In this document: one piece after another, positions 1-22,602 of the stretch
How the letters are laid out: each line of letters begins with the position of its first letter
Numbering within the stretch: the stretch's first letter is position 1
NCBI GenBank assembly: GCA_964604825.1
Contig: CAZSAL010000007.1
Span: forward strand, 128-64,127
Origin: an uncultured Elusimicrobia bacterium
GTDB taxonomy: Bacteria > Elusimicrobiota > Elusimicrobia > 2-01-FULL-59-12
Direction of reading: 5' to 3'
DNA: 64,000 nt
Program-made: the position numbers and the translations under genes
The notes under the pieces: generated by a model
Seen by the model: only the letters and a program-made list of their open reading frames with translations
The model's database searches: none
What the model was told of the DNA's origin: nothing

Positions 1-424
1 CAATCAATTCCAAATAGCCATAATCGCCCCCGCAATCTTCCGGAGGACAGGCTCGGGCCCCGGCCAGACAGAGCGGATATGCCTTCCCTGGTTCCGGCGG
101 CAGGATCTTTTCCACAATAACCTCATGCTCCCACCCGTCGCCGAAATCGTACTCATAAACCAGCAGGGCCTTCTCCGCGTAAACCAGCCGGTTTAATTTC
201 ACGGTCTTGGAATTTATAACGGCATCCATGCGCTCAGGATCGGGAGGGCCGTAGTACGTTCCCCCCGTTCGGAACCCATATAAATGAGTGCCCGTCCACC
301 CCATGGCGCAATTCAAAATCTTGTGCAGGACATGTAGGCTGATGTCTCCTTCCACCTGGACGCGCCTCCAGATCGGCGGCTTGATTCCCTTCAGCGTGAT
401 CTTGATCTGGTAGATGCTGGACAT
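1..424 (-). CDS. PRiA4b ORF-3-like (MM3350-like) domain protein, partial (C-terminus runs off the window)
   Basis: Not in the ORF track. Manual minus-strand translation from the ATG at 422-424 gives MSSIYQIKITLKGIKPPIWRRVQVEGDISLHVLHKILNCAMGWTGTHLYGF...YEYDFGDGWEHEVIVEKI...CPPEDCGGDYGY. IWRR, YDFGDxWxH and CPPEDCGG are hallmark motifs of this family. Confidence 0.75.
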   Translation of the reverse strand, partial: MSSIYQIKITLKGIKPPIWRRVQVEGDISLHVLHKILNCAMGWTGTHLYGFRTGGTYYGPPDPERMDAVINSKTVKLNRLVYAEKALLVYEYDFGDGWEHEVIVEKILPPEPGKAYPLCLAGARACPPEDCGGDYGYLELI

Positions 425-425
425 C

Positions 426-1584
426 CTATGCCTTCCCTTTTTTCGTAGGCGGCGTCGCCACATATTTTTGCTTGGGGCTGCGGGGTGAGCCAGGATCCGT
501 CATCGCGAGGAGTTTTCCTTTAAGCAACGGACGCAAATAGTTGGACATGAAAGTCTCCCTGTCCTTCAACCCCATATAGGCGAGCATTTCGTGAATAGTG
601 CGGGGGTTCGCGCAAAACTTCAGCAAACTAAGCTTGTCGGGTACTTGTCGGGTACTTGTCGGATACTTGTCGGGTACTTGGGGGGTACTTGTAAGGTCTA
701 CCACCTCTGGCTTCGCCAGGGCAGCCCATTGCTTATCGTCATAACGCGGGAAGACTAAATCGAAAAAGGTGTCGAATTTAAACTTAGGCTTGAGGGCATG
801 CTCCCGGCTGACGGCCTCGAAAATGCGGCGAATGCCGCTCCCTGCCCGCTCCACCCTTCCGACCCGATGAAAAAGATCGGCGATCAAGGCGTTCCGACGC
901 ATGCTGGCCTGGCCAAAACGGCTCGGAGCAAGTCCGGGCGGCAGCCCACCGGGACTTGAAATCAAGAGCTTGGATGGGTCAATTTCCATCGCGATGTTAC
1001 CGCCGTAAATCGAGTAATCCCTGTGAATCAAAGCGTTAATGATTCCTTCCCGCAGCGCGGGAATAGGAATCTCCCTATGATCGACTCGTCTGAAGCCCTT
1101 GATCTCATAACGCAACCTTAGATGCCTCAGTAAAAAGACTTCGGCTTGCTCCGCGTTTTCAAAGAGTGCGCAGATAATAGCCGTCGGAACAACCGTAAGG
1201 TTTGCTTTCACCCTCCAGCACCTGAATCAGCAGAAGATTCTTATCCTCTCGCTTAAAAGAATACTGTTTGATGGATACCGGCGGATCACATTTTCTAGCC
1301 GTGTCCTGAATTTGTGACAGCAAGCGGTTGCTGATGTCGATTCCCTTGATTTCTTTGTTATCCGCCATGCCGATATAGATTCGTCCGCCTTCGGCATTGG
1401 CGAATCCCACCATTTCGTGAGCCAAATCCGATGCGGATTGCTTGAACTCGACAAACTGCCCCTCATGCCCGGAGAGATCAAACGTAACCTCGGATGCGAT
1501 TTCAGGTGGCAAATTTACCGGATGTTTTGTTTTAGTCATTTCTCTTACCGCACTCACTCCAACGGCTAACACCCATTTTATCAA
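426..1584 (-). pseudogene. AlbA_2 (Schlafen-type divergent AAA) + HATPase_c_4 (RecG C-terminal-like) putative DNA-binding regulator, split by a frameshift
   Basis: Two overlapping minus-strand ORFs in different frames (1159..1584 and 426..1211). The N part has EFKQS...GFANAEGGRIYIGM...ESKPY. The C part has ALREGIINALIHRDYS...ISSPGGLP plus a wHTH-like tail. Homologues carry these domains on one polypeptide, so a frameshift lies within 1159-1211. Confidence 0.6.
633..698. repeat. Six tandem copies of an 11-bp unit (CTTGTCGGGTA, the last two degenerate) inside the AlbA_2/HATPase_c_4 gene
   Basis: Read directly: cttgtcgggta cttgtcgggta cttgtcggata cttgtcgggta cttggggggta cttgtaaggtc. The unit length is not a multiple of 3. 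The region encodes STPQVPDKYPTSTRQVPDKLS. Confidence 0.9.
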
Positions 1585-1948
1585 ACCCCATGCATACGTT
1601 TCCGAGTGGTAGAGCTGCCGGCAGGAGAACGCCGGGGAGATCGATGAGATTCAAAAACGTCTGCAGTTCCTTCAGATTCTCTTCAGTCCCACTGTCTGCA
1701 GAAAATCGAGAGGAGACTGAGAGAAGGAGACATAGTTATCCGCGTGGATCAGGCAGGTTTTGACGCCTCGAAAACGGGATACAATTTAATAGATGCGTCT
1801 AGTATTTTTACTAGACAAACCTATTATTTTACCGGACACTTTTCCGGACACTTTCTTACGGAAAACATCGGTAATGGTAGGTAAGGGTGGAAGGAGTTCA
1901 CCGTCAATGACGGTAGCCATCGGTGTCCATTTTTTACAACTTATAAAG

Positions 1949-1989
1949 TCCGCCACGCAACTGGCGGATCTGTCGGACGTCTGGCGGAC
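1949..1989 (+). repeat. GGCGGA-box palindromic element, orphan copy (TCCGCCA-N6-TGGCGGAT-N13-TGGCGGAC)
   Basis: gtccgccacgcaactggcggatctgtcggacgtctggcggac. It shares the 7-mer boxes with the copies at 22538, 44784 and 57767, and shares GACGTCTGGCG with the palindrome at 2343-2364. Confidence 0.7.
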
Positions 1990-2181
1990 TGCCAGCCCGC
2001 TCTAACCAGCTGTCCCGTCCTCTATTTTGCTCGCCCCAGAGGGAGCTACCTCGACGGGACTGCACCGCCCCGTAAGCCGCCTTTGGCGGCGAGTATAGTT
2101 GACAGTGCTGAGCTACCCCGCCAAAAAGTGTTGTTTTTACGTATCGTTTATAACAAATTAATCAGAAGTTCAAATGAGCAA

Positions 2182-4119
2182 TCAAATGCCTTCGCTCGTG
2201 TTTGATCTAAGCAATACCGCAGAGTGTCCCTGAGAAAAAATCATCGAATCCCGGAATGGATTTACGGCGCCGGCGCCGCCATAACGGACATCATTACTGG
2301 ACCAGATCATGGACCAATGGGGGGCCGCCCCGCCACCTGACCGGTCGCCAGACGTCTGGCGACCGCCATCTTTTGGCGTCTGGTCAGGTGGTGGGGCCAT
2401 CAGCGGTTCGGGAATTGGGTCTATCTTTAGATCAATCCCCAAATTGACCAAAAGCAGCCTGTCGCCATGCTCTCCCCCGAACCAGCGCATGGCAAAAACC
2501 CTGTCAGCTATCAATGCCCCGTCAATGGAATTGCGTGATTGCGCCACAATAACCGGATCTTCCCTGCGCAGACGAATCAGGTCCTGATGGAACCGGTAGG
2601 CCCCGGCATGCGTACGGCGTTCTGCCAGATCGAGCCGGGAACGTTCGAAAGTTCCGGGATCTGTGGGCAGGGGAATCGACGCCTGAGCATTTTCAGCTGC
2701 ATAGCTTGGGAACTGCGATAAAAGCCGCTTCCGCCCTGCATTGACCAGCTTGCCCAGTTCAGGATTGTGGTCGACAAAAAAGAGGAACGGGCGGCTCGAA
2801 GCGAATTCCTGCCCCATGAATAGCAGCGGCGTTTCCGGTCCCAGCAGGAGCAAAGCCGCCATGCAGCGGTACAATGCGGGGTCGGCCAGCGCGTGAATCC
2901 GCTCGCCGTGAAGATGATTGGCCACATGATCGTGATTCTGAAGAAAATGGATGAAGGCCTCAGCCGGTTCATTGGTAACACAGGTTCCCCTCCGGGCCTT
3001 TTGAAAGGAATGATACTGCCCCTGATAGAGAAAACCTCTTTTCATGCAGGAAATCAGTTCCTGCGGCGTACCCCTATAATCGGCGTAATAGGCTTCGCGC
3101 CTCCCGGTAAGCGCCACCCGCGCGGCATGATGGAAATCATCATTCCAGGTGGCGTCAAGGCCGTATCCGCCAGAGGAACGATCCCGTATCTGGCGGATTT
3201 CCCGCAGATCGTTTTCAGATGTCAGGATAATCGAGCGGCCGCCTGCCGCTTCACGGGCGCGATCGGCGATTTCGGCAAGGATATGCACCGGGCTGGAATC
3301 ATGGATATCCTGGGTCGCGTCAAAGCGCAGGCCGTCAATATGGAATTCCCGGATCCAGTAGCAGGCGTTCTGGATAAAAATATTCCGGACGTCTTTCGAA
3401 TGCGGACCGTCAAAGTTGATGATATTGCCCCATTCGTTCTTTTCTTTCTTGAATAGATCATCCGTGAAAATGCCCAGATAATTGCCGTCAGGCCCGAGAT
3501 GGTTGTAGACAACGTCGAGTATTACGCCCAGCCCCAGGGAGTGGGCGGTATTCACAAAGCGCTTGAAGGCCTGAGAATCTCCGTAGATATGTGCGGGAGC
3601 GAAAAGGGACACGCCGTCATATCCCCAGTTCCAGCGTCCGGGGAATTCCGCTACCGGCATGACTTCAATGGTGGTTATTCCAATGCTTTTAAGTTCGGCA
3701 AGTTCTTTCGCCGCGGCGTCAAACGTTCCTCCCGGAGTAAATGTGCCTATGTGCAGCTCATAGATCACCTGGCCGCGCATCCCGACGCCCGGCCAACCGG
3801 AATCCGTCCAGCGGAAAGCCTTATGGTCAACAATCATTGATGGGCCATGCGGTCCCTCTGGCTGATAATTAGACCAGGGATCAGGATAAGGGCCGGAGCC
3901 ATCCGCGCGATATCGGTAAAGCTTGCCACCACGCAGCCCGGGGATAAATCCTTCGAAGTGGAAATTGTTTTTTTTAAGAGGAAAGGAACGGCCATCTTCC
4001 AGAATGACGTCTACCTGGGCGCATTTCGGCGCCCAGATACGGAAATGGACGCCGTCCGGCTCCACTAGCGCGCCGCAGTACTGCCGCTTAATGGCCACAA
4101 GAGACCTGGACATGGGCAC
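2182..4119 (-). CDS. treZ: Malto-oligosyltrehalose trehalohydrolase-like GH13 enzyme
   Basis: 645 aa. N-terminal CBM48-like VHFRIWAP. GH13 regions GYDGVSLFAP, ILDVVYNHLGPDGNYL, IDGLRFDATQDI, LTSENDL, FLQNHDHVAN. Confidence 0.8.
   Translation of the reverse strand: MPMSRSLVAIKRQYCGALVEPDGVHFRIWAPKCAQVDVILEDGRSFPLKKNNFHFEGFIPGLRGGKLYRYRADGSGPYPDPWSNYQPEGPHGPSMIVDHKAFRWTDSGWPGVGMRGQVIYELHIGTFTPGGTFDAAAKELAELKSIGITTIEVMPVAEFPGRWNWGYDGVSLFAPAHIYGDSQAFKRFVNTAHSLGLGVILDVVYNHLGPDGNYLGIFTDDLFKKEKNEWGNIINFDGPHSKDVRNIFIQNACYWIREFHIDGLRFDATQDIHDSSPVHILAEIADRAREAAGGRSIILTSENDLREIRQIRDRSSGGYGLDATWNDDFHHAARVALTGRREAYYADYRGTPQELISCMKRGFLYQGQYHSFQKARRGTCVTNEPAEAFIHFLQNHDHVANHLHGERIHALADPALYRCMAALLLLGPETPLLFMGQEFASSRPFLFFVDHNPELGKLVNAGRKRLLSQFPSYAAENAQASIPLPTDPGTFERSRLDLAERRTHAGAYRFHQDLIRLRREDPVIVAQSRNSIDGALIADRVFAMRWFGGEHGDRLLLVNLGIDLKIDPIPEPLMAPPPDQTPKDGGRQTSGDRSGGGAAPHWSMIWSSNDVRYGGAGAVNPFRDSMIFSQGHSAVLLRSNTSEGI
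2328..2396. repeat. Nested palindromic element embedded in frame in treZ
   Basis: The outer inverted repeat is ccccgccacctgacc (2328-2342) against ggtcaggtggtgggg (2382-2396). The inner unit ggtcgccagacgtctggcgacc (2343-2364) is a perfect 22-bp palindrome. The element encodes the low-complexity insert PPPDQTPKDGGRQTSGDRSGGG. Confidence 0.85.
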
Positions 4120-4134
4120 GTCCGCGTGACGGGA

Positions 4135-4365
4135 TCAGGATATTTTTACGTCGGCCGGAGGCACGCCGGCATGCATATCGGTTTCGATTTTTCGCCTGCG
4201 GCTAAACTGGAACATGACAAATAGGCCTGCGGCCAGGGCGAAAGATACCTTCGCGATTGCCCGTGATCCAGTTAGAGGATGACCGAAGGCTCCTTCGACC
4301 AGGGAAAGAATAAACAGGATTATTGACCAGCGAAGCACGATGGAATGTCCCTCTTTTCTATCCAT
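4135..4365 (-). CDS. Small hypothetical membrane protein (two predicted TM helices)
   Basis: 76-aa ORF lying 15 nt upstream of treZ on the same strand, with hydrophobic stretches SIILFILSLVEGAF and VSFALAAGLFVMF. No family recognised. Confidence 0.35.
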   Translation of the reverse strand: MDRKEGHSIVLRWSIILFILSLVEGAFGHPLTGSRAIAKVSFALAAGLFVMFQFSRRRKIETDMHAGVPPADVKIS

Positions 4366-4493
4366 TCATAAGACACCCAAAAACCATACAAGTTACACAT
4401 CCCACTCCTATGATTTACAGGAAGGGACAGCCCCGTGTTCCAGAGCGCAACCCATTTCTTCCCTTGTGTGTCTAAAAATGCGCATCGAAAACA

Positions 4494-5642
4494 TTGGAGA
4501 ATCAATTGGACATCAAATGTATCGACCAAACAGAGTTCGACGGCCTTGAGAAAGAATGGAACCAGTTGCTGGCCCGGAGCTCAGCCGACAATGTGTTTCT
4601 GCGCTGGGAATGGATGCATACCTGGTGGGACGTTTTTCGGAAGAACCGCCGGTTACTCGTCATCACAGCCAGGAGTGACGGGAAACTGGCGGCCATAGCC
4701 CCTTTTTATATCGACAGGTCCGGACCGTTGCGGACAAAAACCTTGCGTTTCTGCTCAGACGAGCTTTGTCCCGATTATCTGGATATTATCGCTGAAAAAG
4801 CCCACGAATCAGAGGCCGTAAACGCCATATGCGCGTTTCTTCAAAAAGACCATCGAAATGACTGGGACATGATGGCATTGGAAAATTTACGATCCGACTC
4901 AAAACTCCCTGCTAACCCCATGTTGCTTAATCATCACAACCATCATACGCAGCACTCTTTTGTATGTTCCTATATAAAAATAAACGGGTCATTTGACAAT
5001 TACTGGTCGGCGCGCCCTTCCTTACGCTCGGAACTATCCAGACAACAACGAAAACTATTTAATGAAAAACGGATAAGGCATGTGCCCATCCGTGATGAGC
5101 AAATTTTAGCCAAGGCAATGGAAGACCTGTTTTTCTTACATGCGAAACGGGTCAAAGATAAAAACATCGTCAGCCGTTTCACCGCTGCCGACGTACGCCG
5201 TTTTCATCAGACGCTGGCTCCGGCGTTACTCAAGAATGGCATCCTGAACCTTCATCTCATTTATCACGGCGATTCACCCGTATCGGCCATCTACTGCTTC
5301 AACTACAACAACAAGGTTTATTTTTTCCAAAGCGGCTTCGATCCCCACTGGGGCAAGCGGAGCGTTGGATCGGTGCTTCTGCGCCTGGTTATCCGCGAAG
5401 CTTTTGAAAAAAGATTTGAAGAATTCGATTTTCTAAAGGGAGACGAAGGCTACAAAACGTTCTGGACGAATGCTTCACGCAGAGAATCGGAACTGATAAT
5501 TTACAATCAGACTTTCAGAGGAGCTTTTGGGCATGCAATGAAGATTATGAAAGCGCGCATAAGACATTTGACCAACATTCGGGAAGATTCAGGCGCGCCC
5601 GTTGGTCTTGAGAAAGCGATAGGGGCCCCGCGCCACCCCTAA
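4494..5642 (+). CDS. CelD/BioF2-like GNAT (Acetyltransf_6, FemAB-fold) acyltransferase
   Basis: 382 aa with a TTG start. The N-terminus EWNQLLARSSADNVFLRWEWMHTWW and the C-terminal FDFLKGDEGYKTFW are typical of this family. Confidence 0.7.
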   Translation: MENQLDIKCIDQTEFDGLEKEWNQLLARSSADNVFLRWEWMHTWWDVFRKNRRLLVITARSDGKLAAIAPFYIDRSGPLRTKTLRFCSDELCPDYLDIIAEKAHESEAVNAICAFLQKDHRNDWDMMALENLRSDSKLPANPMLLNHHNHHTQHSFVCSYIKINGSFDNYWSARPSLRSELSRQQRKLFNEKRIRHVPIRDEQILAKAMEDLFFLHAKRVKDKNIVSRFTAADVRRFHQTLAPALLKNGILNLHLIYHGDSPVSAIYCFNYNNKVYFFQSGFDPHWGKRSVGSVLLRLVIREAFEKRFEEFDFLKGDEGYKTFWTNASRRESELIIYNQTFRGAFGHAMKIMKARIRHLTNIREDSGAPVGLEKAIGAPRHP

Positions 5643-5698
5643 ACGGCTTTTACCTACCCCCTGCCCCCCAGAAACATATCCACAACGGAGATGAAACC

Positions 5699-7453
5699 GT
5701 GAAGCTGATTGAAGCTTTAAATATTATTTCTAAAACGCCCGGAGACGGCACGCCCATGAATGTGGCCCTGATCTGCGGCTTCACACCCCTTCATTTGTCG
5801 GCCTTTCTTCATGCCGAACTAAACAAATGTTTTCCGGATAATAAAATAATTTTAAGTACGGGGCTGTATGGGGACCTGCTCGGCAATCTTAACGCGATAA
5901 ATGAGAATAAGCCTGATGCCGCCGTTGTGCTGATAGAATGGGCCGATCTCGATGCGCGGCTGGGAACACGTCAATTGGGCGGATGGGGCCCTCGGCACCT
6001 TAAGAGCATATGTGACCGGGTTAGTTCTTATCTGGCTGAAGTTGGGCGCAGGCTGGATCAGGCCTCGGCCAATTGCCCGATTTATTTGTGCCTGCCGACT
6101 CTTCCTTTGCCGCCCCTGTTTCACACCTACCGCTGGCAGGCCAGTAATCCGGAAATGCAGTTGAGAGGCGAACTGTTCAGTTTTGCCTCAAGATTCTCCA
6201 ACAATAGCAGGATTAATCTGCTTAACATTCAGCGTCTGGACCACCTGTCCCCTCCATCAGAACGGCTTGATGTGAAATCCGAGTGGGAATCCGGGTTTCC
6301 CTTCAGTATTCCGCACGCATCCGTCGTCGGGGAATTGCTGGCGAAATTAATTCACAACCCTCCCGGCATGAAAGGATTAATTACAGACCTGGACAATACC
6401 TTATGGAACGGCATCGTTGGCGATGTCGGAGCGCAGGGCGTACACTGGGATCTTGATCATCACAGCCAGTCTCACGGTATCTACCAGCAGTTTCTGCGGA
6501 CTTTATCTGAAGAAGGGGCGCTTCTGGGCATTGCCAGCAAAAACGATCCCGCCAATGTCGAAGAAGTATTTCAAAGGGCCGACATTCTCCTGCCAAAGAA
6601 CTGTTTATTCCCCTGCGAACTGGGATGGCAAAGCAAATCCAGGTCCATCGGACGAATTTTGAAAATCTGGAACATCGGCGCCGACAGCGTAGTTTTTATC
6701 GACGATAGCCTGGCGGAAATCGCCGAAGTCCGCTCCGCCTATCCTGACATAAAGTGCATCCAGTTCCCATGCGGCGACCATCGCGGCGCCTATAAACTCA
6801 TCGAACACCTGCGGGATTTATTCGGCCGGCGATCAATATCTCAGGAAGACGCGCTGCGTTTGAACAGTATTCGTGAACACGCCCGTTTTGAGCAGGACGG
6901 CCAAAACGACGAAAACGGTTTTTCTGAAGAACTCTTACGTGAAATGAAGGCTGAACTGACGCTGAGTTTTGTAAAGGACGAACGGGACGGCAGGCTGCTG
7001 GATCTCTTGAACAAAACCAACCAGTTCAATCTAAATGGCAAACGCTACACTGAAAGCTCGTGGCAGGATTACATGCACAGGCCGGACACCTACGTACTGG
7101 CTGTAAGTTATAAGGACCGTTTCGGCCTGCTCGGGAAAATAGCGGTCCTTGCCGGGCGGACAGACGGCAATTCATTATGGGTAGATACCTGGGCAATGAG
7201 CTGCCGGGCCTTTGCCCGCCGCATAGAACACCAGTGCGTAAAGTCGTTATTCGATTTTTTTGGCGCCGCTCAAATACTTCTCAACTACACAAAGACCACG
7301 AAGAACATTCCCCTGGCCCGGTTTTTAAAAGAAATCATTCATAAAGAACCTGAAGGCCTGTTAACGCTTTCACGGGAATCTTTTTTAAATTCATGCCCGA
7401 AACTCTACCACCAGCTGGTTATTCCCAGGAATGCGGATTTAACCCATGTCTAG
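5699..7453 (+). CDS. FkbH-like HAD-IIIC phosphatase/acyl-loading protein
   Basis: 584 aa. GTG start with GGAG 9 nt upstream. HAD motif I LITDLDNTLWNG, then GIASKNDP, VVFIDDSLAEIAEV, and the conserved cysteine motif TWAMSCRAFARRIE. Confidence 0.85.
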   Translation: MKLIEALNIISKTPGDGTPMNVALICGFTPLHLSAFLHAELNKCFPDNKIILSTGLYGDLLGNLNAINENKPDAAVVLIEWADLDARLGTRQLGGWGPRHLKSICDRVSSYLAEVGRRLDQASANCPIYLCLPTLPLPPLFHTYRWQASNPEMQLRGELFSFASRFSNNSRINLLNIQRLDHLSPPSERLDVKSEWESGFPFSIPHASVVGELLAKLIHNPPGMKGLITDLDNTLWNGIVGDVGAQGVHWDLDHHSQSHGIYQQFLRTLSEEGALLGIASKNDPANVEEVFQRADILLPKNCLFPCELGWQSKSRSIGRILKIWNIGADSVVFIDDSLAEIAEVRSAYPDIKCIQFPCGDHRGAYKLIEHLRDLFGRRSISQEDALRLNSIREHARFEQDGQNDENGFSEELLREMKAELTLSFVKDERDGRLLDLLNKTNQFNLNGKRYTESSWQDYMHRPDTYVLAVSYKDRFGLLGKIAVLAGRTDGNSLWVDTWAMSCRAFARRIEHQCVKSLFDFFGAAQILLNYTKTTKNIPLARFLKEIIHKEPEGLLTLSRESFLNSCPKLYHQLVIPRNADLTHV

Positions 7454-7706
7454 TCCGCGAGAACGGCTGATCAAATGCTTTAAGGCTGTCTTCCCTGAAC
7501 TTAACGAACAGGAAATTCAAATGGCCAGTACCGCCTCCGTAGCCAATTGGGATTCAGTCGCAGGCATCACCCTGCTTACCGTTACAGAAGAGGAATTCAA
7601 AATAACGGTCAAACCTGAAGACCTGGAACAACTGAGTTCATTCGAGCTCATTCTGGATTACCTGAACAGCGAAAAGCTTGTGGCGTCCAATGCAGCCATT
7701 TCCTGA
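7446..7706 (+). CDS. Acyl carrier protein
   Basis: 86 aa, acidic. The phosphopantetheine serine context is ANWDSVAGITLL. The start overlaps the FkbH stop by 8 nt (ATGTCTAG). Confidence 0.75.
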   Translation: MSSPRERLIKCFKAVFPELNEQEIQMASTASVANWDSVAGITLLTVTEEEFKITVKPEDLEQLSSFELILDYLNSEKLVASNAAIS

Positions 7707-8907
7707 GGCAACCGTCCTGACTCCGGAACAAATCCGGGTTGGCCTTTCAGCGCAATTCGAGCGGGAGATTACCAACGAAGACGTTTTAACTTTTGCCGCA
7801 AATTCGGGCGACGCCAATCCTCTTCATACAGATAAAGAATACGCCGGGCAAAGTAATTTTCACGGCGGAATTGTTCATGGAGCCTTCCAAATCAGCCTTG
7901 CATCAGCCCTGGCCGGCATGCACCTGCCGGGAAGAAATGTGCTGCTGGGATCTGTGCAGGCCAGATTCCCCAGTCCTCTTTATTATCCCTGCCGTGTCCG
8001 GGTGCATGGACAAATCGTTTCATGGAATCCTGCCACCAGGGCGGGGAATTTGAAAGTGATCGTTTGCGAGCTGAATTCCCAGATTCCCACGGCGGATATT
8101 TTTATGGGGTTCACCCTGCATGAACAAAGACCCGTTCAAATCGGCGCTCTCCCGACGGCAATCCCCTCCGCCAGCCTGTCAAATGATGGCGGTGGGAAAA
8201 CCGCAAAAGTCATAGTCGTCACAGGAGCTTCCGGCGGCCTTGGTTCCAGTATTATTCCTGATCTGGCAAAACACTTCGATGTCATCGCTTTGGCGCACCG
8301 CAACTCCATCCAGGATCAGATCCTGAGGATATCGAACGTATCTGCCGTGCAAACAGATTTACAGATGCCGGGCTGGGAAAACGAACTAACAAAGACGCTG
8401 GGAAATCGCCCGCTCTACGGCATAGTCCACACTGCCTGGCCCAGCAAGCCGCATGGCGGTCTTCTTGAATGTGACAACGGCGTTCTCACTCAGCAGCTTG
8501 TTTTTGGAACTTTCCCTATCGCGCTTTGCCGTTTTCTAATCAACCATGCAGGAGAAACCGGGGGGCGATGCGTCGTACTTGGCTCTTATCCGGGAAGCCT
8601 TGCCGCTTCGCTCTCCTGCGCAAGTTATTTCCTTGCCAAATTAACTCTGGAAAATACCGTGAGGCTCCTTGCCCCTGAACTCGCCAGGAAAAAGATAACG
8701 ATCAATGTTGTCAGCCCTTCTTTTCTTCACCTGGGGATGAACAAGCAATCCGGGGACAGGCAGATTTTGAAAGAAACCGCGGCGATACCGATGGGCCGTC
8801 TTTGCCAGCCGGAAGACATTATCGGGTTATTGCGATACCTTCTTTCTCCGGAATCAGCGTTCGTTTCGGGCCAGGTGATTTCACTTACAGGAGCACAAAT
8901 CCGATGA
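7690..8907 (+). CDS. MaoC-like hotdog dehydratase fused to a short-chain dehydrogenase/reductase
   Basis: The N-terminal part has GDANPLHTDKEYAGQSNFHGGIVHGAF (MaoC). The C-terminal part has the Rossmann motif VIVVTGASGGLGSSI and an SDR-like tail. I prefer the ATG at 7690 over the TTG at 7678. Confidence 0.75.
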   Translation: MQPFPEATVLTPEQIRVGLSAQFEREITNEDVLTFAANSGDANPLHTDKEYAGQSNFHGGIVHGAFQISLASALAGMHLPGRNVLLGSVQARFPSPLYYPCRVRVHGQIVSWNPATRAGNLKVIVCELNSQIPTADIFMGFTLHEQRPVQIGALPTAIPSASLSNDGGGKTAKVIVVTGASGGLGSSIIPDLAKHFDVIALAHRNSIQDQILRISNVSAVQTDLQMPGWENELTKTLGNRPLYGIVHTAWPSKPHGGLLECDNGVLTQQLVFGTFPIALCRFLINHAGETGGRCVVLGSYPGSLAASLSCASYFLAKLTLENTVRLLAPELARKKITINVVSPSFLHLGMNKQSGDRQILKETAAIPMGRLCQPEDIIGLLRYLLSPESAFVSGQVISLTGAQIR

Positions 8908-9914
8908 GCATTGAATTTTCCCCCATAGTTGAATCCGACATTATCGGGATTCGCGCTTTGATGCGAACGGCTTTTCAAGTTCAATCGGACGCGCCATTCC
9001 TTAATGTCGATTTATTGCGCTGGAAATATATCGAACCCAGACCTGACTGGGAAGGCTCCAGAGGGTTCGTTTTCCGGCAAGGGGACAAAATCCTGGCGCA
9101 TTGCGGCCTGGCTCCCGTCCGTTTTATGATGCCAGGAAACGAAATCTCAGCCGTCTGCTTTATGGACTGGGCCGCCAGCAGCAGCATCCCCGGGATAGGC
9201 GGCCTGCTTCTGCGCCGCCTGATGAAGATGGGAGATATCGCCGTAGTGGCCGGGGGCACAGCCGATACCTGGGCGGCTATTCCAAAACTGGGATTCGTCC
9301 GCCATGCCGACCTCTTGCATTATGTGCGGGTGGTTCGCCCGTGGAATATTTTTCAGGAAAAATCATCCGAACCGTCATGGAAGCGGATTGCGCGCCTGCT
9401 GCGATATACGGCCCGGGAGATTATTTCGCCAAACACCGTTCCGGCGGGATGGGAATTGAAACCCATAACCAGATTCGAAGCGGAACCATGGCAGAATATG
9501 CCTTCGGAGCGATACGTGGCGATTCGACGTGATGCCGAGCTTCTGAACTACTGGCTGCGCTGTCCCCTGGCAAAATTTTCGGGTTTTCTGGTGTTACACA
9601 ACGGCAGGGTCTGCGGACATGTGCTGATTAATAAATTGCGAAAGCAGGCGCGGATTGTTGATGTGCGCTTGAATAGGGAAGATCCTGCGGCATGGCAGGC
9701 CGCTTACGCTCTGGCAACCCGTCAGGCGATGTCCACTCCGGAAATTGTGGAAGTCCGCGCTATTGCATCAGCCCCTCTGGCGCAATTCGCGCTGAACAAG
9801 AACGGGTTCCACAAGAGCTACCAGGCGTCGATCTTTCTTTACGACCCCAGGAAGATTCTGGACAGTCAGCCTTTGCACTGGAATTTCATAGACGATGATT
9901 CCGCGTTGATTTGA
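8904..9914 (+). CDS. GNAT-like acyltransferase (hypothetical)
   Basis: The ATG at 8904 forms an ATGA overlap with the upstream stop, so the track ORF start at 8802 is probably an over-extension. MSIEFSPIVESDIIGIRALM... has a GNAT-like N-terminus. The family call is weak. Confidence 0.5.
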   Translation: MSIEFSPIVESDIIGIRALMRTAFQVQSDAPFLNVDLLRWKYIEPRPDWEGSRGFVFRQGDKILAHCGLAPVRFMMPGNEISAVCFMDWAASSSIPGIGGLLLRRLMKMGDIAVVAGGTADTWAAIPKLGFVRHADLLHYVRVVRPWNIFQEKSSEPSWKRIARLLRYTAREIISPNTVPAGWELKPITRFEAEPWQNMPSERYVAIRRDAELLNYWLRCPLAKFSGFLVLHNGRVCGHVLINKLRKQARIVDVRLNREDPAAWQAAYALATRQAMSTPEIVEVRAIASAPLAQFALNKNGFHKSYQASIFLYDPRKILDSQPLHWNFIDDDSALI

Positions 9915-10777
9915 CCGCGTCCTCGCGCAGGCAGGGATCTTCGCAGCATATCCACACATACCCACCAGAGAATCCTGGGATTACCTTTAACCTGGGAAAG
10001 ACAATAAGGAATCCAGCCATGTCCGTAAGGAAGATACAGCCGCACGTGCACACCCATGGCCCGCGCCGTCCGGCAGGAAGGCTCCAGCGGCAGGCCATAA
10101 AGCAGTTCTAATTCACATGGAGTTCCGGCATTAAGCAATCTCCCTAGAGCCTCTTTGGCAAGGACAATGTCGTGGGTTGCAACCGCCACATGCCGGGCAC
10201 GCCCCGCAAGTTTATCTATGACCGCAAGAAATCCTTTTCTCAGGTCTTTGTCAGGATTAGTTTGATCATCCCATTGCCCTTTGACTACACGCACAGGCAA
10301 TCCATTTTCAACCGCCCAATCGCAATCGCGCAAACTGCGGAGCCATCTGCCCGGCAAAGTGCAGCCGGGCCTGACTCCGCGTGAAAGCCATCCCTTAATT
10401 ACGTCAAATGTATCGTCCGCGGCCTCGGGCGCGTGCGAATCAAAATGCAGGTGGATGTTGTTATTTATCCCACCATCCAAAATTCTGTTCAAACACTGGC
10501 GGTTGAAATTTAATGCCGGAACCTTAAGCGAAATGTAGGAATTCATTTTTTCAACCCTCGCTGCATCTACGGCGTCAAGATACTTCGCAGTAATCTGCTG
10601 AGGAGATTCCTCAAGGTCATTCCAATAACAAAAAACCGTTGATATCCCCTGCGAAGCAAGTTCGCGGGATATCCGAAGAGCATCGGAGAGTTTCTCTCCA
10701 ACGATATAGGAGGGCGCCGCCAGTTTCGCCAGGCGCTCCCAGCAACTCCATAACCATTTTTTAAATGCGGAGGTCAC
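9866..10777 (-). CDS. Proline dehydrogenase-fold (PRODH-like) protein, atypical
   Basis: 303 aa. YISLKVPALN resembles the PRODH beta-strand motif. The C-terminal LYLPYGHGWIPYCLSQVKGNP aligns to the Y.PYG..W.PY..RR..E.P motif, but the Arg-Arg pair is replaced by Ser-Gln. Confidence 0.5.
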   Translation of the reverse strand: MTSAFKKWLWSCWERLAKLAAPSYIVGEKLSDALRISRELASQGISTVFCYWNDLEESPQQITAKYLDAVDAARVEKMNSYISLKVPALNFNRQCLNRILDGGINNNIHLHFDSHAPEAADDTFDVIKGWLSRGVRPGCTLPGRWLRSLRDCDWAVENGLPVRVVKGQWDDQTNPDKDLRKGFLAVIDKLAGRARHVAVATHDIVLAKEALGRLLNAGTPCELELLYGLPLEPSCRTARAMGVHVRLYLPYGHGWIPYCLSQVKGNPRILWWVCVDMLRRSLPARGRGQINAESSSMKFQCKG

Positions 10778-11859
10778 GCAATAAGCTCCTTCAATTTATT
10801 GATTCCGGTTGATACGGGGTGAGAATGATAGTAATGACGGACTACATCGCCGACCAGCGCGGCAACCCCCTGAAACCCAAACGGGTAGCCGCGTAACACC
10901 GAGTAATTCCTCTCCAAGGGCGTCCAAACTTTCCAGCAGCTTTCAACTGTTCCAAGAAACTCGTAAGAGTTAAGGCCGCCCGCTGCGGCATGTCTGATAC
11001 TTTCCCTCAGCAGCAGCATCCCCGGGGAACATCGGGCGAAGCGATTGTCGTATCCAATCTTCAAAAGCCAGAATTTCTTTGCATACTCAACGGCTATCTG
11101 CATGGCGGCGGTTTTGTCACCTATGCGCAGAAAACAAATTCTCAGGATTCCCTCTTCACACGCAGAAATCGCATATTCGCGATAAAACTCCCCCCTCAAA
11201 GGATCCATCGCCATCGCAGTTCCGCTTTGCCCTTTCCAACTGGCAGCCTCCACCATGAAAGCCTGCTGAAGCAATGCCGGAAGATTTTCCTTTGAAGGGA
11301 CAATGATTTCACACGAGACCGGTCCGATTTCTTCCGCGTTACGCCGGGCCCGGCGCAAATCAGACCGGCGACCGGAATTAAGATGCGTTTCGGGGTCCAG
11401 CCAGCTTGAATCAAGCGCTATCCAGGGCGAGCCTGTATCCCTTGCGCAGTTCAGCAGACCTCTTCCATGGAACGCAGTTTCCATGCTCTTTTTGAATGGC
11501 GAATCACTCGGGACGCGTTTAAGCAGCAGCGGCATCCCCAACCCCCGTATGGCCGCCGCCAGACGATGCAAAGCATTTTGGTCGGCATAAATTACATCGG
11601 TAGGTTCCCCGTACTCTTTCACTCCAAGAACCTCAAGATAGCGGTTCCCATGCTCGCGCGCCAGCGGGGCGAGTGCATTTATTTTTCCATCTTCCTCGAT
11701 CGCTACTACGCACAGGTCATATTTATGCCTTAATACGGAAGCGCACGCCCTTGCCCAGATGAACTGCTGCATGGGCAGTTCACATTTTTTCTCTAATGCG
11801 TTCCAAGCGGGGGCCAACGCGTCAAGAGCATCAATATTGTCAATAATTCGAATGTTCAT
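10774..11859 (-). CDS. CelD/BioF2-like GNAT (Acetyltransf_6) acyltransferase, second copy
   Basis: 361 aa. ALDALAPAWNALEKKCELPMQQFIWARAC and YEFLGTVESCWKVW match the family. It shares architecture with 4494..5642. Confidence 0.7.
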   Translation of the reverse strand: MNIRIIDNIDALDALAPAWNALEKKCELPMQQFIWARACASVLRHKYDLCVVAIEEDGKINALAPLAREHGNRYLEVLGVKEYGEPTDVIYADQNALHRLAAAIRGLGMPLLLKRVPSDSPFKKSMETAFHGRGLLNCARDTGSPWIALDSSWLDPETHLNSGRRSDLRRARRNAEEIGPVSCEIIVPSKENLPALLQQAFMVEAASWKGQSGTAMAMDPLRGEFYREYAISACEEGILRICFLRIGDKTAAMQIAVEYAKKFWLLKIGYDNRFARCSPGMLLLRESIRHAAAGGLNSYEFLGTVESCWKVWTPLERNYSVLRGYPFGFQGVAALVGDVVRHYYHSHPVSTGINKLKELIA

Positions 11860-14162
11860 TTAAAAACTTCCTGCGAACCCGGAACGCGAGATGCGTTATA
11901 TTTGCGCTGCGTACCAGGTACGAATGGCGACTGCATGGAGCGTGTGCCTCCCAGCCCGGCAAGTATTGCGGAAAAGTTAAAATTAGACATCCCCGGTTCC
12001 ACTCCCGTTCTTCTTAACAGGAAAGGATTAACCCCGCGGAAATTGACTCCTCTTTCCGTTGTCACTGCCGTTTCAAATCCGCATTGCGAAAGAACACCCG
12101 TCACCCGGTCATCAATATCTTCAAAGTTCCCGTTCGGATAACAAAAATGGGTCATGGGCCTGTTTAATTCTTCTTCAATCCTCCGTTTACTGCCGGAAAT
12201 CTCGGAATGAATTTCCACTTCATTAGACAACCGCGATAAAATCGGGTGCGTTACCGTGTGAACGCCAAAATCTACCCCCCGGTCAGCCATATAACGCACG
12301 TCAGACCATTCCAGCGGCGCGAATGGTTCGGGAGCGGTCTCCGGCATATTTACTTCGAACAGCGAAGGTATATCGTTCATAATTCTAATCCGGTCCTCAT
12401 CAGGCATGTCTTTTAACGCGGCAATAATGGCCAGGATCGCCTGACGACGCTGTTCTTCCGTCTCGAGCCTTATATTAATAGATGACTGTTGAAGCAGAAG
12501 GGGAATCTCAACCCGTTTCTTCCGTGTGTGTTCGATTGCAAAGGTAATTTGATCCCACCACAACCATATTTTCTTGTCAAGAAAACCGCTCACCAGGAAA
12601 ACCGTAACAGGGATCTGAAACTTCTGAAAAACGGGAAATGCATTGCTGCCGAAATCCTTATAGCCGTCATCAACTGTGACGATAAGGGCGTTTCTCGGCA
12701 ATGGAGTTCCTTCGCGAAAACTGCCGGCGATTTCCGCGAAGGATATTACATGGAAATTCCGGCGGATATAAGCGCATTGTCTGGCAAGAGATGCCTGCAT
12801 TCCATTGCCGGATGCGAACCGGTGATACATTACAATTCGGAAACCATCCTGATTCCACGAGTTGATCCTTTTTATTTTCCCAGAGGGATAAAGAAGCAGG
12901 CGGGAGAGAAGCATCGTTTTCAATCGCTGCGTGAAATTGCCGCCGCTTGAATGATCCGCGAAATAGTTGCGCGTGATTCCCGTCGCGATCGGAGCCGTAT
13001 CAATATTCAGTTCCGAATATATCTCTCTAAGCCGCCGAATCCATTTATTCTGATTGAATTCCTCAGTGACACGCTGCTGGAAGCGGATCGATTTTTCCAG
13101 CAGCTTAGCCTGGCCTTCCTTTGAAAGACACAGTTTCAGGCGCCAGGCGGATTCCTCCGGGAATTCGTCTTTGGGAACCAGTTCACCGTAGGATTCATCC
13201 GGGAATAAATCCGTAACGCCTCCGACCCGCGTGCACATTACCGGCGTTCCAGCCCAGCCCGCTTCTATGAGATTGATGGGTAAACCTTCCGCCCTGGAAA
13301 ATGAAAGCGCCAGATCCAGGCCCGCAAGTTCTTTTCCCACTTCATCCCTGTATCCCATCCACTTAATACGGGATGCCGCGCCAAATCGGTGCGCCTGCAA
13401 ACGGAGCTTTTTCTCTAACGGACCTGTTCCGAAAATCAGACAGCGCCAATCCATCACGCCCGGAAGACGGTTCAATAAAGCCAGAACCTTGATAAGCCTG
13501 TCGTGATCTTTTTCCGGCATAAGACGCCCGATCACGCCCATAAGGAAAAGATCGTCGCGGCGCATCTCATCCGGCAACCAGGCGGGACGTATGCGCCGCG
13601 ATTCAACGGCTCTTTGCTCCAAGGGCACCAGACGTCCTTCTATTCCATTTAAATGGAGCCTGAGCCGTCCTTTGGGAATGCCGGAACGGGCCAGAATTTC
13701 ATAGTCGGCACAGGAAACGCAGCACACACGATCAAATTTATTCAAAAGGTACATCCGGTAAAACAATTCGAACATCTTAGTTTTCCAGTCGGGCCTACCT
13801 TCAACCCCGTGGTGAGTTGAAACTATCGGGAAATTCTTATCCGTCAAAGCCTGTTTTGCCTGTTGAAGATAGGCGGAAGCTTTCACATCGTGGGCATGCG
13901 CCAGAACAGGATTCAAGCGCCGGAGAAGAAGGCATAAATCCCGCATGGCCACGTGATCCCATTGTCCGCATACACGCACGTCATAATAGGGCAGATTAAG
14001 TGAACGGGCATATATCTCGAGAGGATCCGACTCACGCAGGCGGGCAATTCTTTCTTCTCGCAGATTGACGATTACAAACCGTTCCTGCAGCCCGGCAAGA
14101 GCCGGCAGAACAAGCCGCTCAGGACCGCTGACAGAACTGGAATTGAATAAATGGACAATCAT
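11856..14162 (-). CDS. Glycosyltransferase family 4 fused to a NodB-type polysaccharide deacetylase
   Basis: 768 aa. The N-terminal half is GT4 (RAEGLPINLIEAGWAGTPVMCTRVGG). The C-terminal half carries NodB motifs VTVDDGYKDF, HTVTHPILSRL and FCYPNG. Confidence 0.8.
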   Translation of the reverse strand: MIVHLFNSSSVSGPERLVLPALAGLQERFVIVNLREERIARLRESDPLEIYARSLNLPYYDVRVCGQWDHVAMRDLCLLLRRLNPVLAHAHDVKASAYLQQAKQALTDKNFPIVSTHHGVEGRPDWKTKMFELFYRMYLLNKFDRVCCVSCADYEILARSGIPKGRLRLHLNGIEGRLVPLEQRAVESRRIRPAWLPDEMRRDDLFLMGVIGRLMPEKDHDRLIKVLALLNRLPGVMDWRCLIFGTGPLEKKLRLQAHRFGAASRIKWMGYRDEVGKELAGLDLALSFSRAEGLPINLIEAGWAGTPVMCTRVGGVTDLFPDESYGELVPKDEFPEESAWRLKLCLSKEGQAKLLEKSIRFQQRVTEEFNQNKWIRRLREIYSELNIDTAPIATGITRNYFADHSSGGNFTQRLKTMLLSRLLLYPSGKIKRINSWNQDGFRIVMYHRFASGNGMQASLARQCAYIRRNFHVISFAEIAGSFREGTPLPRNALIVTVDDGYKDFGSNAFPVFQKFQIPVTVFLVSGFLDKKIWLWWDQITFAIEHTRKKRVEIPLLLQQSSINIRLETEEQRRQAILAIIAALKDMPDEDRIRIMNDIPSLFEVNMPETAPEPFAPLEWSDVRYMADRGVDFGVHTVTHPILSRLSNEVEIHSEISGSKRRIEEELNRPMTHFCYPNGNFEDIDDRVTGVLSQCGFETAVTTERGVNFRGVNPFLLRRTGVEPGMSNFNFSAILAGLGGTRSMQSPFVPGTQRKYNASRVPGSQEVFK

Positions 14163-14166
14163 TTAC

Positions 14167-16713: not shown

Positions 16714-16728
16714 TAATTATTCCTTCCT

Positions 16729-19438: not shown

Positions 19439-19448
19439 GAATCAGCCC

Positions 19449-21406: not shown

Positions 21407-21420
21407 AAGCTGCCTCCCTC

Positions 21421-21460
21421 ACCATTGCTCTCTCCTGAAATGGGAGAGGGAATCAATGGT
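21421..21460 (-). other. Intercistronic hairpin between the wza-like and kinase-like genes
   Basis: ACCATTG-c-TCTCTCC-tgaaatg-GGAGAGG-gaat-CAATGGT. Both arm pairs are complementary. Confidence 0.6.
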
Positions 21461-21481
21461 TTTGCATTTCCCTTTTAAAGA

Positions 21482-22519: not shown

Positions 22520-22537
22520 TTTCATTTCTCCTTTTTT

Positions 22538-22601
22538 ATCCGCCAATAAAACGCCGGCGGATCCGCCAACGACTCAGTGGTTGATAAGCCTCAATGGCGG
22601 A
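22538..22601 (-). promoter_or_regulatory. GGCGGA-box twin-hairpin element in the 83-nt intercistronic gap upstream of the wza-like gene
   Basis: Minus-strand RNA: UCCGCCA-N26-UGGCGGA UCCGCC-N11-GGCGGA, followed by AUAAAAAAGGAGA and the ATG. The core GGCGGATCCGCCAACGACT is identical to the copy at 44801-44819. Confidence 0.7.
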
Positions 22602-22602
22602 C

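Follow-up and report, generated by a model that had tools for sequence, protein, structure and literature searches.

An FkbH/acyl carrier protein cassette in a Wzx/Wzy exopolysaccharide locus and its possible role in amino-sugar acylation

Genes and proteins of the cassette

The 64-kb window analysed here, from contig CAZSAL010000007.1 of an uncultured Elusimicrobia bacterium, carries five co-directional open reading frames (ORFs) on its plus strand (positions 4494-9914), facing an exopolysaccharide (EPS) locus of the Wzx/Wzy type on the minus strand. Four of them encode an FkbH-family protein, a small acyl carrier protein (ACP), a MaoC hotdog domain fused to a short-chain dehydrogenase/reductase (SDR) and a tandem-GNAT acyltransferase. 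An earlier note on this DNA, made by reading the sequence, had described the set as a cassette, and the coordinates agree. Its observation of the cassette as a whole is confirmed by the ORFs, their junctions, the domain calls and a recurring gene order: the same order is found again in independent loci of other phyla, which is more than chance.

The five genes had been regarded as translationally coupled. This is true of the four genes between 5699 and 9914 (FkbH, ACP, MaoC-SDR and tandem GNAT), which overlap one another; the first gene (4494-5642) stands apart, separated by a gap of 56 nt from the FkbH start codon, a GTG at 5699 with a GGAG 9 nt upstream. The three overlaps described before are all visible in the sequence. 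The ACP start codon (ATG 7446) sits 8 nt inside the end of the FkbH gene, whose TAG occupies 7451-7453, so that the two genes share positions 7446-7453; this junction reads ATGTCTAG. The ACP stop codon (TGA, 7704-7706) lies inside the start region of the MaoC-SDR gene, which begins at TTG 7678 or, more likely, at ATG 7690. Finally, an ATGA at 8904-8907 joins the MaoC-SDR gene to that of the tandem GNAT. A promoter and terminator scan of 4000-10300 gave counts no higher than the shuffle expectation, and the Rfam scan returned a tRNA-Thr as its sole match.

The FkbH-family protein (5699-7453, plus strand) is 584 aa long and has three domains. It scores 212 bits against TIGR01686 (cutoff 146.65) and 50.3 bits against the HAD-IIIC model TIGR01681 (cutoff 35.75), and in Pfam it has a sub-threshold HAD match only. 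The family had been proposed from the HAD DxDxT motif and a cysteine motif; both sequences, LITDLDNTLW and WAMSCRAF, are found in the protein, and the assignment holds, with D230, D232 and S501-C502-R503 invariant in an alignment of 19 homologues. HAD motif I (DLDNT) corresponds to residues 230-234, and SKN, a conserved Lys and DD align with FkbH members linked to polyketide synthases (PKS). The elements DLD[ND]TLW, SKN, DD, NQFNL and SCR are common to this clade, to the Streptomyces FkbH proteins of the related loci L062 and L075, and to a dehydratase-methyltransferase-FkbH-ACP (DH-MT-FkbH-ACP) protein of locus L018. On the basis of these features, the product of 5699-7453 is predicted to be a glyceryl-S-ACP synthase.

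An SGNH-like domain (residues ~1-220) precedes the HAD-IIIC phosphatase domain (~225-375) and a C-terminal GNAT-like domain (~419-575), which holds the invariant Ser-Cys-Arg. The AF2 model has a mean pLDDT of 81.7 and a pTM of 0.47, and because of this pTM the arrangement of the domains is uncertain. In Foldseek, the best match of the model is 3slr, a solved but uncharacterised fragment of Bacteroides fragilis BF1531 that contains the N-terminal SGNH-like domain too, followed by MDP-1 HAD phosphatases, GDSL lipases and GNATs. Within the N-terminal domain (window 5699-6360), a conserved C-G-F-T-P-L-H stretch replaces the usual GDS nucleophile block of the SGNH/GDSL fold. More than 4,900 homologues of the FkbH protein are found at E <= 1e-20; the nearest, with 50-55% identity over the full length, come mostly from soil metagenomes.

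The next gene (7446-7706, plus strand) encodes a dedicated ACP of 86 aa. Although the single sequence reaches only 17.7 bits with PF00550, below the gathering score of 20.8, a profile built from 17 members of the family matches, over the full length, ACPs of the E. coli type with solved structures in the PDB (E = 6e-7). The serine of its WDS motif is aligned with the phosphopantetheine serine (DSL) of these structures, and W35-D36-S37 is invariant in the family. The ACP call and the retained serine proposed before are therefore borne out by the family profile, with the motif reading WDS.

Both halves of the MaoC-SDR fusion (7678-8907, plus strand; likely start ATG 7690) score above cutoff, with PF01575 and PF13561, respectively. 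The hotdog half is of the R-hydratase/dehydratase type (PF01575, 56.7 bits; cutoff 27). The hydratase-2 motif GDxNPLH and an HG pair are invariant in 16 homologues of the fusion, as are the TGxxGGxG loop and the Ser-Tyr-Lys triad of the SDR half (T178, G179, G182, G183, G185, S299, Y313 and K317). The best NCBIfam matches of this second half are FabG-type 3-oxoacyl reductases, all below cutoff. At least 694 homologues of the fusion exist, with a length of ~400 aa.

The last protein of the cassette (8904-9914, plus strand; 336 aa) belongs to an unnamed family. No Pfam or NCBIfam family matches it above cutoff, PF13527 appearing only at E = 0.0098 with 16.3 bits (cutoff 25 bits). Its AF2 model is of high quality (pLDDT 92.6, pTM 0.90), and Foldseek relates it to the N-myristoyltransferases NMT1/2, to Eis2 and to the structures 2ozg and 2hv2, with a probability of 1.0 and TM-scores of 0.53-0.61. 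A PGxGG loop, of the type that binds the pantetheine pyrophosphate, is conserved. The protein had been described as a weaker GNAT-like candidate for delivering the acyl group; it proves to be a tandem GNAT, and at E <= 1e-30 its family numbers 476 sequences, each representing a 50%-identity cluster.

A further component is found on the minus strand, where a fusion protein (11856-14162) combines a GT4 glycosyltransferase domain (12876-14162; PF00534, PF13439, PF13692) with a downstream CE4 deacetylase domain of the NodB type, which forms its C-terminal half (11856-12875; PF01522, 74.4 bits, cutoff 23.1). The latter contains the invariants of its subfamily: the D-D (TVDDG) and H-x3-H (HTxTHP) elements, which supply the metal ligands and the catalytic Asp, and a YPxG motif. 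A scan for transmembrane segments and signal peptides found none in the CE4 deacetylase or in any other component of the cassette, which fits an ACP-dependent chemistry in the cytoplasm. The deacetylase is predicted to be cytoplasmic and to expose an amine that is later re-acylated. Moreover, the fusion suggests that deacetylation acts on an N-acetyl-hexosamine (HexNAc) just added to a lipid-linked repeat unit, the GT4 half probably being the enzyme that adds it.

Pfam scans of the window, which took in every ORF of at least 400 aa, identified no ketosynthase (KS), acyltransferase (AT), condensation or PKS domain in the scanned ORFs, in agreement with the absence of such genes remarked on before.

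Conservation and variation of the cassette in related loci

Species-representative genomes were scanned for FkbH relatives, of which 592 were found, and the loci were compared by BLAST and clustering; among the 84 loci examined (designated by L numbers), 36 are non-redundant orthologous loci. The full-length orthologues (40-49% identity) belong mostly to Acidobacteriota, the other hosts being Armatimonadota, Nitrospira, Planctomycetota, Gemmatimonadota and one deltaproteobacterium. An ACP homologue directly follows FkbH in 31 of the 36 orthologous loci. Polysaccharide genes, counted as GT2, GT4, Wzy, Wzx, phosphoglycosyl transferase, UDP-sugar dehydrogenase, NDP-sugar epimerase or dehydratase, and AsnB, are recognisable in 27/34, and a PKS or nonribosomal peptide synthetase (NRPS) lies near FkbH in a single one (1/36; L018). 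Orthologous cassettes are therefore not consistently adjacent to PKS/NRPS genes: in this clade, an FkbH/ACP pair that is independent of PKS and set among polysaccharide genes is the norm, and the neighbourhoods in other genomes bear out what had been proposed from the window.

The exception, L018, carries (at 3-7721 and 16940-21019) an A-T-KS-AT-T-C-T-TE hybrid and, separately, the DH-FkbM methyltransferase-FkbH-ACP protein, and besides these it keeps a stand-alone FkbH-ACP pair. When its KS and AT were used as probes, three of the 84 loci scored, namely L018 itself and two Streptomyces loci with a distant FkbH.

What follows the ACP is variable. In a first variant (A), it is a tandem GNAT (L001, L004, L023, L026). 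In a second (A'), MaoC-SDR is inserted directly after the ACP; this is the case in six of the 36 orthologous loci (L017, L024, L027, L028, L029, L033), and a tandem GNAT comes next in L024 and L033. Loci fetched by means of MaoC-SDR homologues gave the converse picture: the fusion directly follows an ACP in all five (L088, L089, L090, L092, L093), with FkbH upstream in four, the contig ending in L092. The full order FkbH-ACP-MaoC/SDR-tandem GNAT is found in L024, L033 and L090, and also in L092, where FkbH is cut by the contig end and the MaoC-SDR and tandem GNAT proteins are 59% and 46% identical, respectively, to those of the window. L090 reads GT2-FkbH-ACP-MaoC/SDR-tandem GNAT-CE4 deacetylase, with the same five components as the window. 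These components co-occur across phyla. MaoC-SDR is an optional accessory, present in about one-sixth of the orthologous loci. It is at the same time a dedicated partner of FkbH/ACP, which makes it reasonable that the C3 unit is tailored while bound to the ACP, to lactyl for instance. The processing of the C3 donor by the hotdog-SDR protein, as proposed earlier, stands to this extent and only for an optional part of the system.

A third variant (B) combines a methylmalonyl-CoA-epimerase-like VOC/glyoxalase protein (~150 aa), an acyltransferase of the hexapeptide (LbH) type and a protein of 600 aa that matches no Pfam or NCBIfam family. It is found in L006 (12029-14366), L007 (11983-12402), L009, L011, L014, L019, L021, L025, L030, L031 and L036, and suggests that the tethered acyl group is epimerised and then transferred by the LbH enzyme. 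In L089, the neighbours are DegT aminotransferases, an NDP-sugar dehydratase, a nucleotidyltransferase and a PglD-like LbH N-acyltransferase. Given these variable partners downstream of the ACP, FkbH/ACP behaves as a donor-supply module for different tailoring enzymes and amino-sugar N-acyltransferases.

Second carrier systems are also present. L093 (12360-16146) has an AsnB-like amidotransferase, an ACP and an AMP-ligase, and in L002 (18389-20296) an AMP-binding/PP-binding fusion and a P450 adjoin the cassette; a single polysaccharide locus may thus draw on several acyl-donor systems.

The conserved transferase partner of the cassette is the tandem GNAT, whose homologues follow FkbH-ACP, with or without MaoC-SDR in between, in L001, L004, L024, L033, L090 and L092. 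Free-standing orthologues of the CE4 deacetylase (41-55% identity) adjoin FkbH-ACP-tandem GNAT in L001, L004 and L090, and orthologues in the same range of identity adjoin a tandem GNAT in L086 and L087, two polysaccharide loci without FkbH/ACP. Because of this recurrent proximity, the tandem GNAT and this CE4 subfamily are the tightest pair, a cytoplasmic de-N-acetylase with an N-acyltransferase, for which FkbH/ACP, with or without MaoC-SDR, is one feed route. The logic of deacetylation followed by re-acylation, put forward in the earlier note, fits these five loci and the lack of a signal peptide.

Two CelD/FemAB-fold GNATs, on the other hand, had been named among the enzymes that could deliver the acyl group, and here the earlier view needs revision. 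One (4494-5642, plus strand; PF13480, 101 bits) stands at the head of the plus-strand gene set, and the other (10774-11859, minus strand; Pfam) belongs to the convergent EPS operon. Homologues of 4494-5642 occur in just three of the 84 loci (L004, L049, L063), and the comparison across loci led us to reject the PF13480 proteins as conserved partners. The gene at 4494-5642 is part of the locus, outside the conserved core, and either PF13480 GNAT may serve the same polymer in some other way. Such proteins are frequent in EPS loci, L004 alone having three.

The only cultured carrier found is the acidobacterium Paludibaculum fermentans P105, on its plasmid pPfer1 (L091; NZ_CP063850.1, 29919-39404). 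A full-length FkbH orthologue (43%) has an O-antigen-ligase-like gene upstream of it there and is followed by a GT2, a polysaccharide deacetylase, two glycosyltransferases, an MBOAT protein and a GT4. The MBOAT protein hints at a DltB-like acyl transfer across the membrane. As neither an ACP nor a tandem GNAT is detectable on it, the plasmid is a less than ideal model of the complete cassette.

Proposed pathway, alternatives and known systems

The earlier interpretation stands in its PKS-free polysaccharide setting and in its link to a deacetylase, and has to be modified as to the PF13480 transferases and the coupling of five genes. In its modified form, we consider it reasonably probable that the cassette is a carrier-dependent supply of a C3 hydroxy-acyl group together with its transferase, which replaces the N-acetyl group of an EPS amino sugar, with lactyl as the favoured new group and glyceryl as the other candidate. 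The substrate, the acyl product (lactyl or glyceryl), the N- or O-linkage, the acceptor and the lipid-linked stage are what we infer from the gene content.

Characterised FkbH/OzmB enzymes load glyceryl from 1,3-bisphosphoglycerate onto an ACP. Since the motifs of the window clade are common to the PKS-linked members, the simplest assumption is the same glyceryl-loading chemistry: FkbH would take a glycolytic acyl phosphate, most likely 1,3-bisphosphoglycerate, its HAD domain would remove the 3-phosphate, and the acyl group would be held on Cys502 and handed to the adjacent ACP as glyceryl-S-ACP. As a 3-hydroxyacyl thioester, this product belongs to the compounds on which MaoC dehydratases act, and elimination of its 3-hydroxyl by the MaoC half would give the enol of pyruvoyl-S-ACP and, from this, pyruvoyl-S-ACP itself. 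The fused SDR would then reduce the 2-keto group, yielding lactyl-S-ACP; in ClyF, a ketoreductase (KR) of the SDR type reduces a carrier-bound pyruvoyl to lactyl (PMC7923214). At the cytoplasmic face, the GT4-CE4 fusion would add a HexNAc to the lipid-linked repeat unit and de-N-acetylate it, the tandem GNAT would take the C3 acyl group off the ACP and attach it to the amine set free, and Wzx, Wzy and Wza would flip, polymerise and export the modified unit.

Sugars of the expected kind have been described. N-glyceroyl pseudaminic acid is present in Tannerella forsythia, the flagellin of Campylobacter jejuni 11168 carries a 2,3-di-O-methylglyceroyl pseudaminic acid, and in Vibrio vulnificus a glyceric acid residue is located at C7 of pseudaminic acid; the source describes the responsible genes as unidentified (PMC5378307). 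Lactyl counterparts are the N-(R)-lactyl pseudaminic acid of Psychrobacter marincola and the N-(R)-2-hydroxypropionyl-perosamine of V. cholerae O144, reported in a paper that assigns no genes to them (PMC7281560).

The sister variants, in which parts are swapped around the FkbH/ACP pair, argue for this pair as a putative general acyl-donor module for amino-sugar N-acylation. In its widest form, the idea would make the non-PKS FkbH/ACP pairs widespread glycan-decoration modules that draw a C3 unit from glycolysis onto a carrier protein, with tailoring of the tethered group (to lactyl by MaoC-SDR, to the other glyceryl enantiomer by the VOC protein) and with interchangeable transferases (tandem GNAT or LbH) that hand it to amino sugars. 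This generalisation is tentative and falls somewhat short of being probable.

Several observations weigh against the replacement of N-acetyl by an FkbH-derived lactyl group. The deacetylase of the window is encoded on the other strand, at a distance of 2 kb, and belongs to a different, convergent operon. About five-sixths of the orthologous FkbH-ACP loci are without MaoC-SDR, and lactyl formation is therefore at best one variant. The tandem GNAT of the window is 38% identical to those of L001 and L004, which have no MaoC-SDR, and 30-33% identical to those of L024, L033 and L090, which have it. A separate similarity group of MaoC-SDR-partnered tandem GNATs was thus rejected, as identity gives no such split, and with the proteins not sorted by the presence of MaoC-SDR, there is no sign of an adaptation to a specific donor. 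The tandem GNATs of L086 and L087, in loci without FkbH/ACP, show that the family need not use acyl-ACP. Plasmid pPfer1 has FkbH and a deacetylase, but no detectable ACP or tandem GNAT. Furthermore, identity between the clade and the PKS-linked FkbH proteins of these loci is just 30-34%, which leaves room for another substrate. Last, every step past domain identity and co-occurrence is one that we infer.

The most serious alternative concerns the product: the donor and transferase would work as proposed, and the acyl group would be hydroxypyruvoyl, tartronate semialdehyde or pyruvoyl, or would arise from the action of MaoC-SDR on another thioester. MaoC and SDR are, in fact, a generic hydratase/dehydrogenase pair of beta-oxidation-type chemistry, and MFE-2-type enzymes use a MaoC-type hydratase with an SDR dehydrogenase. 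The sub-cutoff NCBIfam matches of the SDR half likewise point to FabG-type 3-oxoacyl reductases and not to alpha-keto reductases. However, MaoC naturally acts on 3-hydroxy thioesters that have a free C2 proton, elimination from glyceryl necessarily yields pyruvoyl, and pyruvoyl provides the fused reductase with an obvious substrate; as the reduction of carrier-bound pyruvoyl to lactyl by an SDR-type KR is known (PMC7923214) and N-lactyl sugars exist (PMC7281560), a non-lactyl product is unlikely. If FkbH of this clade loaded another acyl phosphate or phospho-acid, the group on the polysaccharide would not be derived from glycerate at all. The low identity to PKS-linked members would be accounted for in this way, as would the distinct N-terminal SGNH-like domain and the fact that neither the clade members nor the solved relative 3slr (BF1531) have an assigned function. 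Such a change of substrate is nevertheless quite improbable in view of the TIGR01686 score, well above the cutoff, the HAD and Cys-domain motifs common to the PKS-linked members and the recurring MaoC partner, which fits a 3-hydroxyacyl unit.

The acceptor could also be different, namely a sugar hydroxyl (forming an O-ester), an NDP-amino sugar not yet used by a glycosyltransferase, or some molecule other than a polysaccharide; the deacetylase would then be unrelated in function. In L089 and in variant B, the partner is an LbH/PglD-like acyltransferase among NDP-amino-sugar genes, and a nucleotide sugar is probably the acceptor there; the position of the window deacetylase in the convergent operon points in the same direction. 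This has to be set against the adjacency of the tandem GNAT and the signal-less CE4 in at least seven independent loci, including L086 and L087 without FkbH, and against the scanned ORFs of the window, among which no DegT-type aminotransferase or NDP-sugar 4,6-dehydratase was identified, and we give this possibility little credence. It is very doubtful that the PF13480 GNATs (4494, 10774), rather than the 336-aa protein, transfer the ACP-bound acyl group. The gene at 4494-5642 does head the co-directional set and its family is frequent in EPS loci, L004 being an example, but it is not translationally coupled and recurs in hardly any FkbH locus (3/84), whereas the 336-aa family is repeatedly located directly after the ACP or MaoC-SDR. 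Finally, the cassette could make a free small molecule (a PKS-independent product or an acylated metabolite), next to the EPS genes by chance, for which L018, with its NRPS-PKS hybrid and its DH-MT-FkbH-ACP protein, would be a precedent. The frequencies given above for PKS/NRPS (1/36) and polysaccharide genes (27/34) are hardly compatible with such a role, and no condensation, KS, thioesterase or natural-product-type export function was found by Pfam in the scanned ORFs of the window; we regard it as extremely improbable.

In comparison with known systems, the cassette resembles the FkbH/OzmB glyceryl-S-ACP synthases of PKS, tetronate and NRPS pathways in its TIGR01686 family, the residues of HAD motifs I-IV, the Ser-Cys-Arg cysteine and the small neighbouring ACP. 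It differs from them in that the 64 kb contain no KS, AT, condensation (C) or thioesterase (TE) domain, in that FkbH is accompanied, within a Wzx/Wzy locus, by a tandem GNAT and a CE4 deacetylase, and in that the clade, 30-34% identical, has its own N-terminal SGNH-like domain. For BryA of the bryostatin pathway (DH-KR-FkbH-ACP), a route from a glyceryl unit to a D-lactyl starter has been proposed. Loading modules of trans-AT PKS such as BryA and OocJ have in common with the window an FkbH and an ACP with a dehydratase, and the BryA type a reductase as well. Those modules employ a double-hotdog DH of the PKS type, and a PKS KR, both in cis within a megasynthase that supplies a KS; the window, on the contrary, has a single-hotdog MaoC fused to a classical SDR, acting in trans on a free ACP and feeding a GNAT. 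FkbH domains are known to load unusual units onto ACPs, and the loading module of OocJ (oocydin) has the architecture DH-MT-FkbH-ACP (PMC4552970), to which the L018 protein is equivalent.

The order of events that we propose has a counterpart in NodB/NodA/NodF and LpxC/LpxD, where a GlcNAc is de-N-acetylated in the cytoplasm and then N-acylated from acyl-ACP. The likeness is one of logic, the window having a signal-less deacetylase of NodB homology (PF01522) and an ACP. Its putative transferase has a tandem-GNAT fold in place of that of NodA or of the LbH protein LpxD, and no NodA-family Pfam match was obtained among the scanned window proteins; it is not a member of the Nod systems. Moreover, the donor would be a C3 hydroxy acid from a glycolytic intermediate and not a fatty acid, and the acceptor is presumably an EPS repeat unit. 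Closer in context is cj1302 of C. jejuni, annotated as an FkbH-domain gene in a flagellin-glycosylation locus without PKS (PMC7099621). No function is assigned to it in the literature searched, its acceptor would be a nonulosonic acid, and tandem GNAT, MaoC-SDR or CE4 partners are not reported there.

EPS systems of the XrtA/PEP-CTERM type combine a carrier protein, a deacetylase and FemAB-like genes, with acyl activation by an AMP-ligase. The best NCBIfam matches of the glycosyltransferases, chain-length protein, tyrosine-kinase-like ATPase, exporter and initiating transferase of the window are XrtA families, at scores far below the cutoffs (stp1, 123 bits against 316.65; stp2, 82.4 against 409.05). 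In the window, acyl activation would proceed via FkbH instead of an AMP-ligase, and no exosortase domain or PEP-CTERM protein is found in the scanned ORFs, so the window is not a member of this group; L004 does carry a PEP-CTERM protein. The rfbKLMNO genes of V. cholerae O1 make an ACP-tethered tetronate (C4) within an O-antigen locus and transfer it to perosamine. They rely on an acyl-CoA synthetase and LuxE/LuxC-like activation, with an NDP-perosamine as acceptor, and include no FkbH, MaoC-SDR, tandem GNAT or deacetylase. A short hydroxy acid bound to an ACP and destined for an amino sugar is the common element, with FkbH and a C3 unit in the window.

Hence, the parts (FkbH, ACP, MaoC, SDR, GNAT, CE4) are all known families, and their combination inside Wzx/Wzy loci was not found described in the literature. 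Apart from the annotation of cj1302, the literature searched held nothing relevant on FkbH in connection with polysaccharides, capsules or O-antigens. N-glyceroyl and N-lactyl amino sugars are known from the surface glycans of pathogens and marine bacteria, for which the cassette offers a concrete and testable pathway; if the wider idea of general decoration modules is true, it would provide their missing genetic basis and give natural-product and polysaccharide biosynthesis a common donor-supply system. FkbH is in use as a marker of polyketide and tetronate clusters. Thousands of homologues, from soil Acidobacteriota, Planctomycetota and others, appear to be linked to polysaccharides, and so should not be counted as natural-product potential. 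The tandem-GNAT family (~480 clusters at 50% identity) and the signal-less CE4 subfamily gain a hypothesis, that of a deacetylase/re-acylase pair remodelling the amides of polysaccharides. The modular design, with donor supply, tailoring and transferase, could serve the engineering of acyl decorations on polysaccharides, and four soluble proteins of the pathway are open to routine assay.

The remaining exopolysaccharide locus and its surroundings

According to Pfam, NCBIfam and the transmembrane scan, positions 9866-27657 of the minus strand make up an EPS locus of the Wzx/Wzy type. The neighbours listed before (glycosyltransferases, flippase, polymerase, exporter and the NodB-type domain within 11856-14162) are all supported by the Pfam calls. 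At the end of its operon lies a proline-dehydrogenase-like TIM-barrel protein of 303 aa (9866-10777, minus strand), which matches NF045947 with 55.6 bits, far below the cutoff. Its gene is translationally coupled to that of the PF13480 GNAT (10774-11859), and with its stop end it runs 49 nt into the 3' end of the tandem-GNAT gene, which converges on it. It was rejected as a member of the conserved module: no homologue is present in the 84 loci, and a 308-aa protein of L004 is unrelated.

Upstream of the GT4-CE4 fusion, the rest of the locus (14167-27657, minus strand; Pfam, NCBIfam, transmembrane scan) encodes a GH123_N-like protein with a type IX secretion system (T9SS) tail, a glycosyltransferase, a Wzy_C polymerase, a chain-length protein with two transmembrane segments, a BY-kinase-like ATPase, a Wza-type exporter, a Wzx-GT4 fusion, an initiating phosphoglycosyl transferase and a GT2. 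Taken by itself, the T9SS tail would point to an organism of the FCB group. The remaining window holds housekeeping genes (cysS, ispDF, radA, mla, alr, dnaB, eno, pgm, PBP and ppdK).

Some of the EPS genes are of interest in themselves. The 874-aa ORF at 22603-25227 (minus strand) joins a Wzx-type flippase (MurJ/Polysacc_synt/MatE, ~7 hydrophobic segments) to a complete GT4, an unusual fusion. At 19449-21406 (minus strand), the chain-length determinant (transmembrane segments 23-44 and 343-363) and the BY-kinase-like ATPase are encoded separately, which amounts to a split Wzc arrangement. Large proteins with a GH123 N-terminal-like domain are encoded at 14167-16713 (minus strand) and 27828-32093 (plus strand), inside or flanking the EPS locus; one of them has a T9SS C-terminal sorting domain and the other six fibronectin-III repeats, and they may be secreted enzymes that process the polymer.

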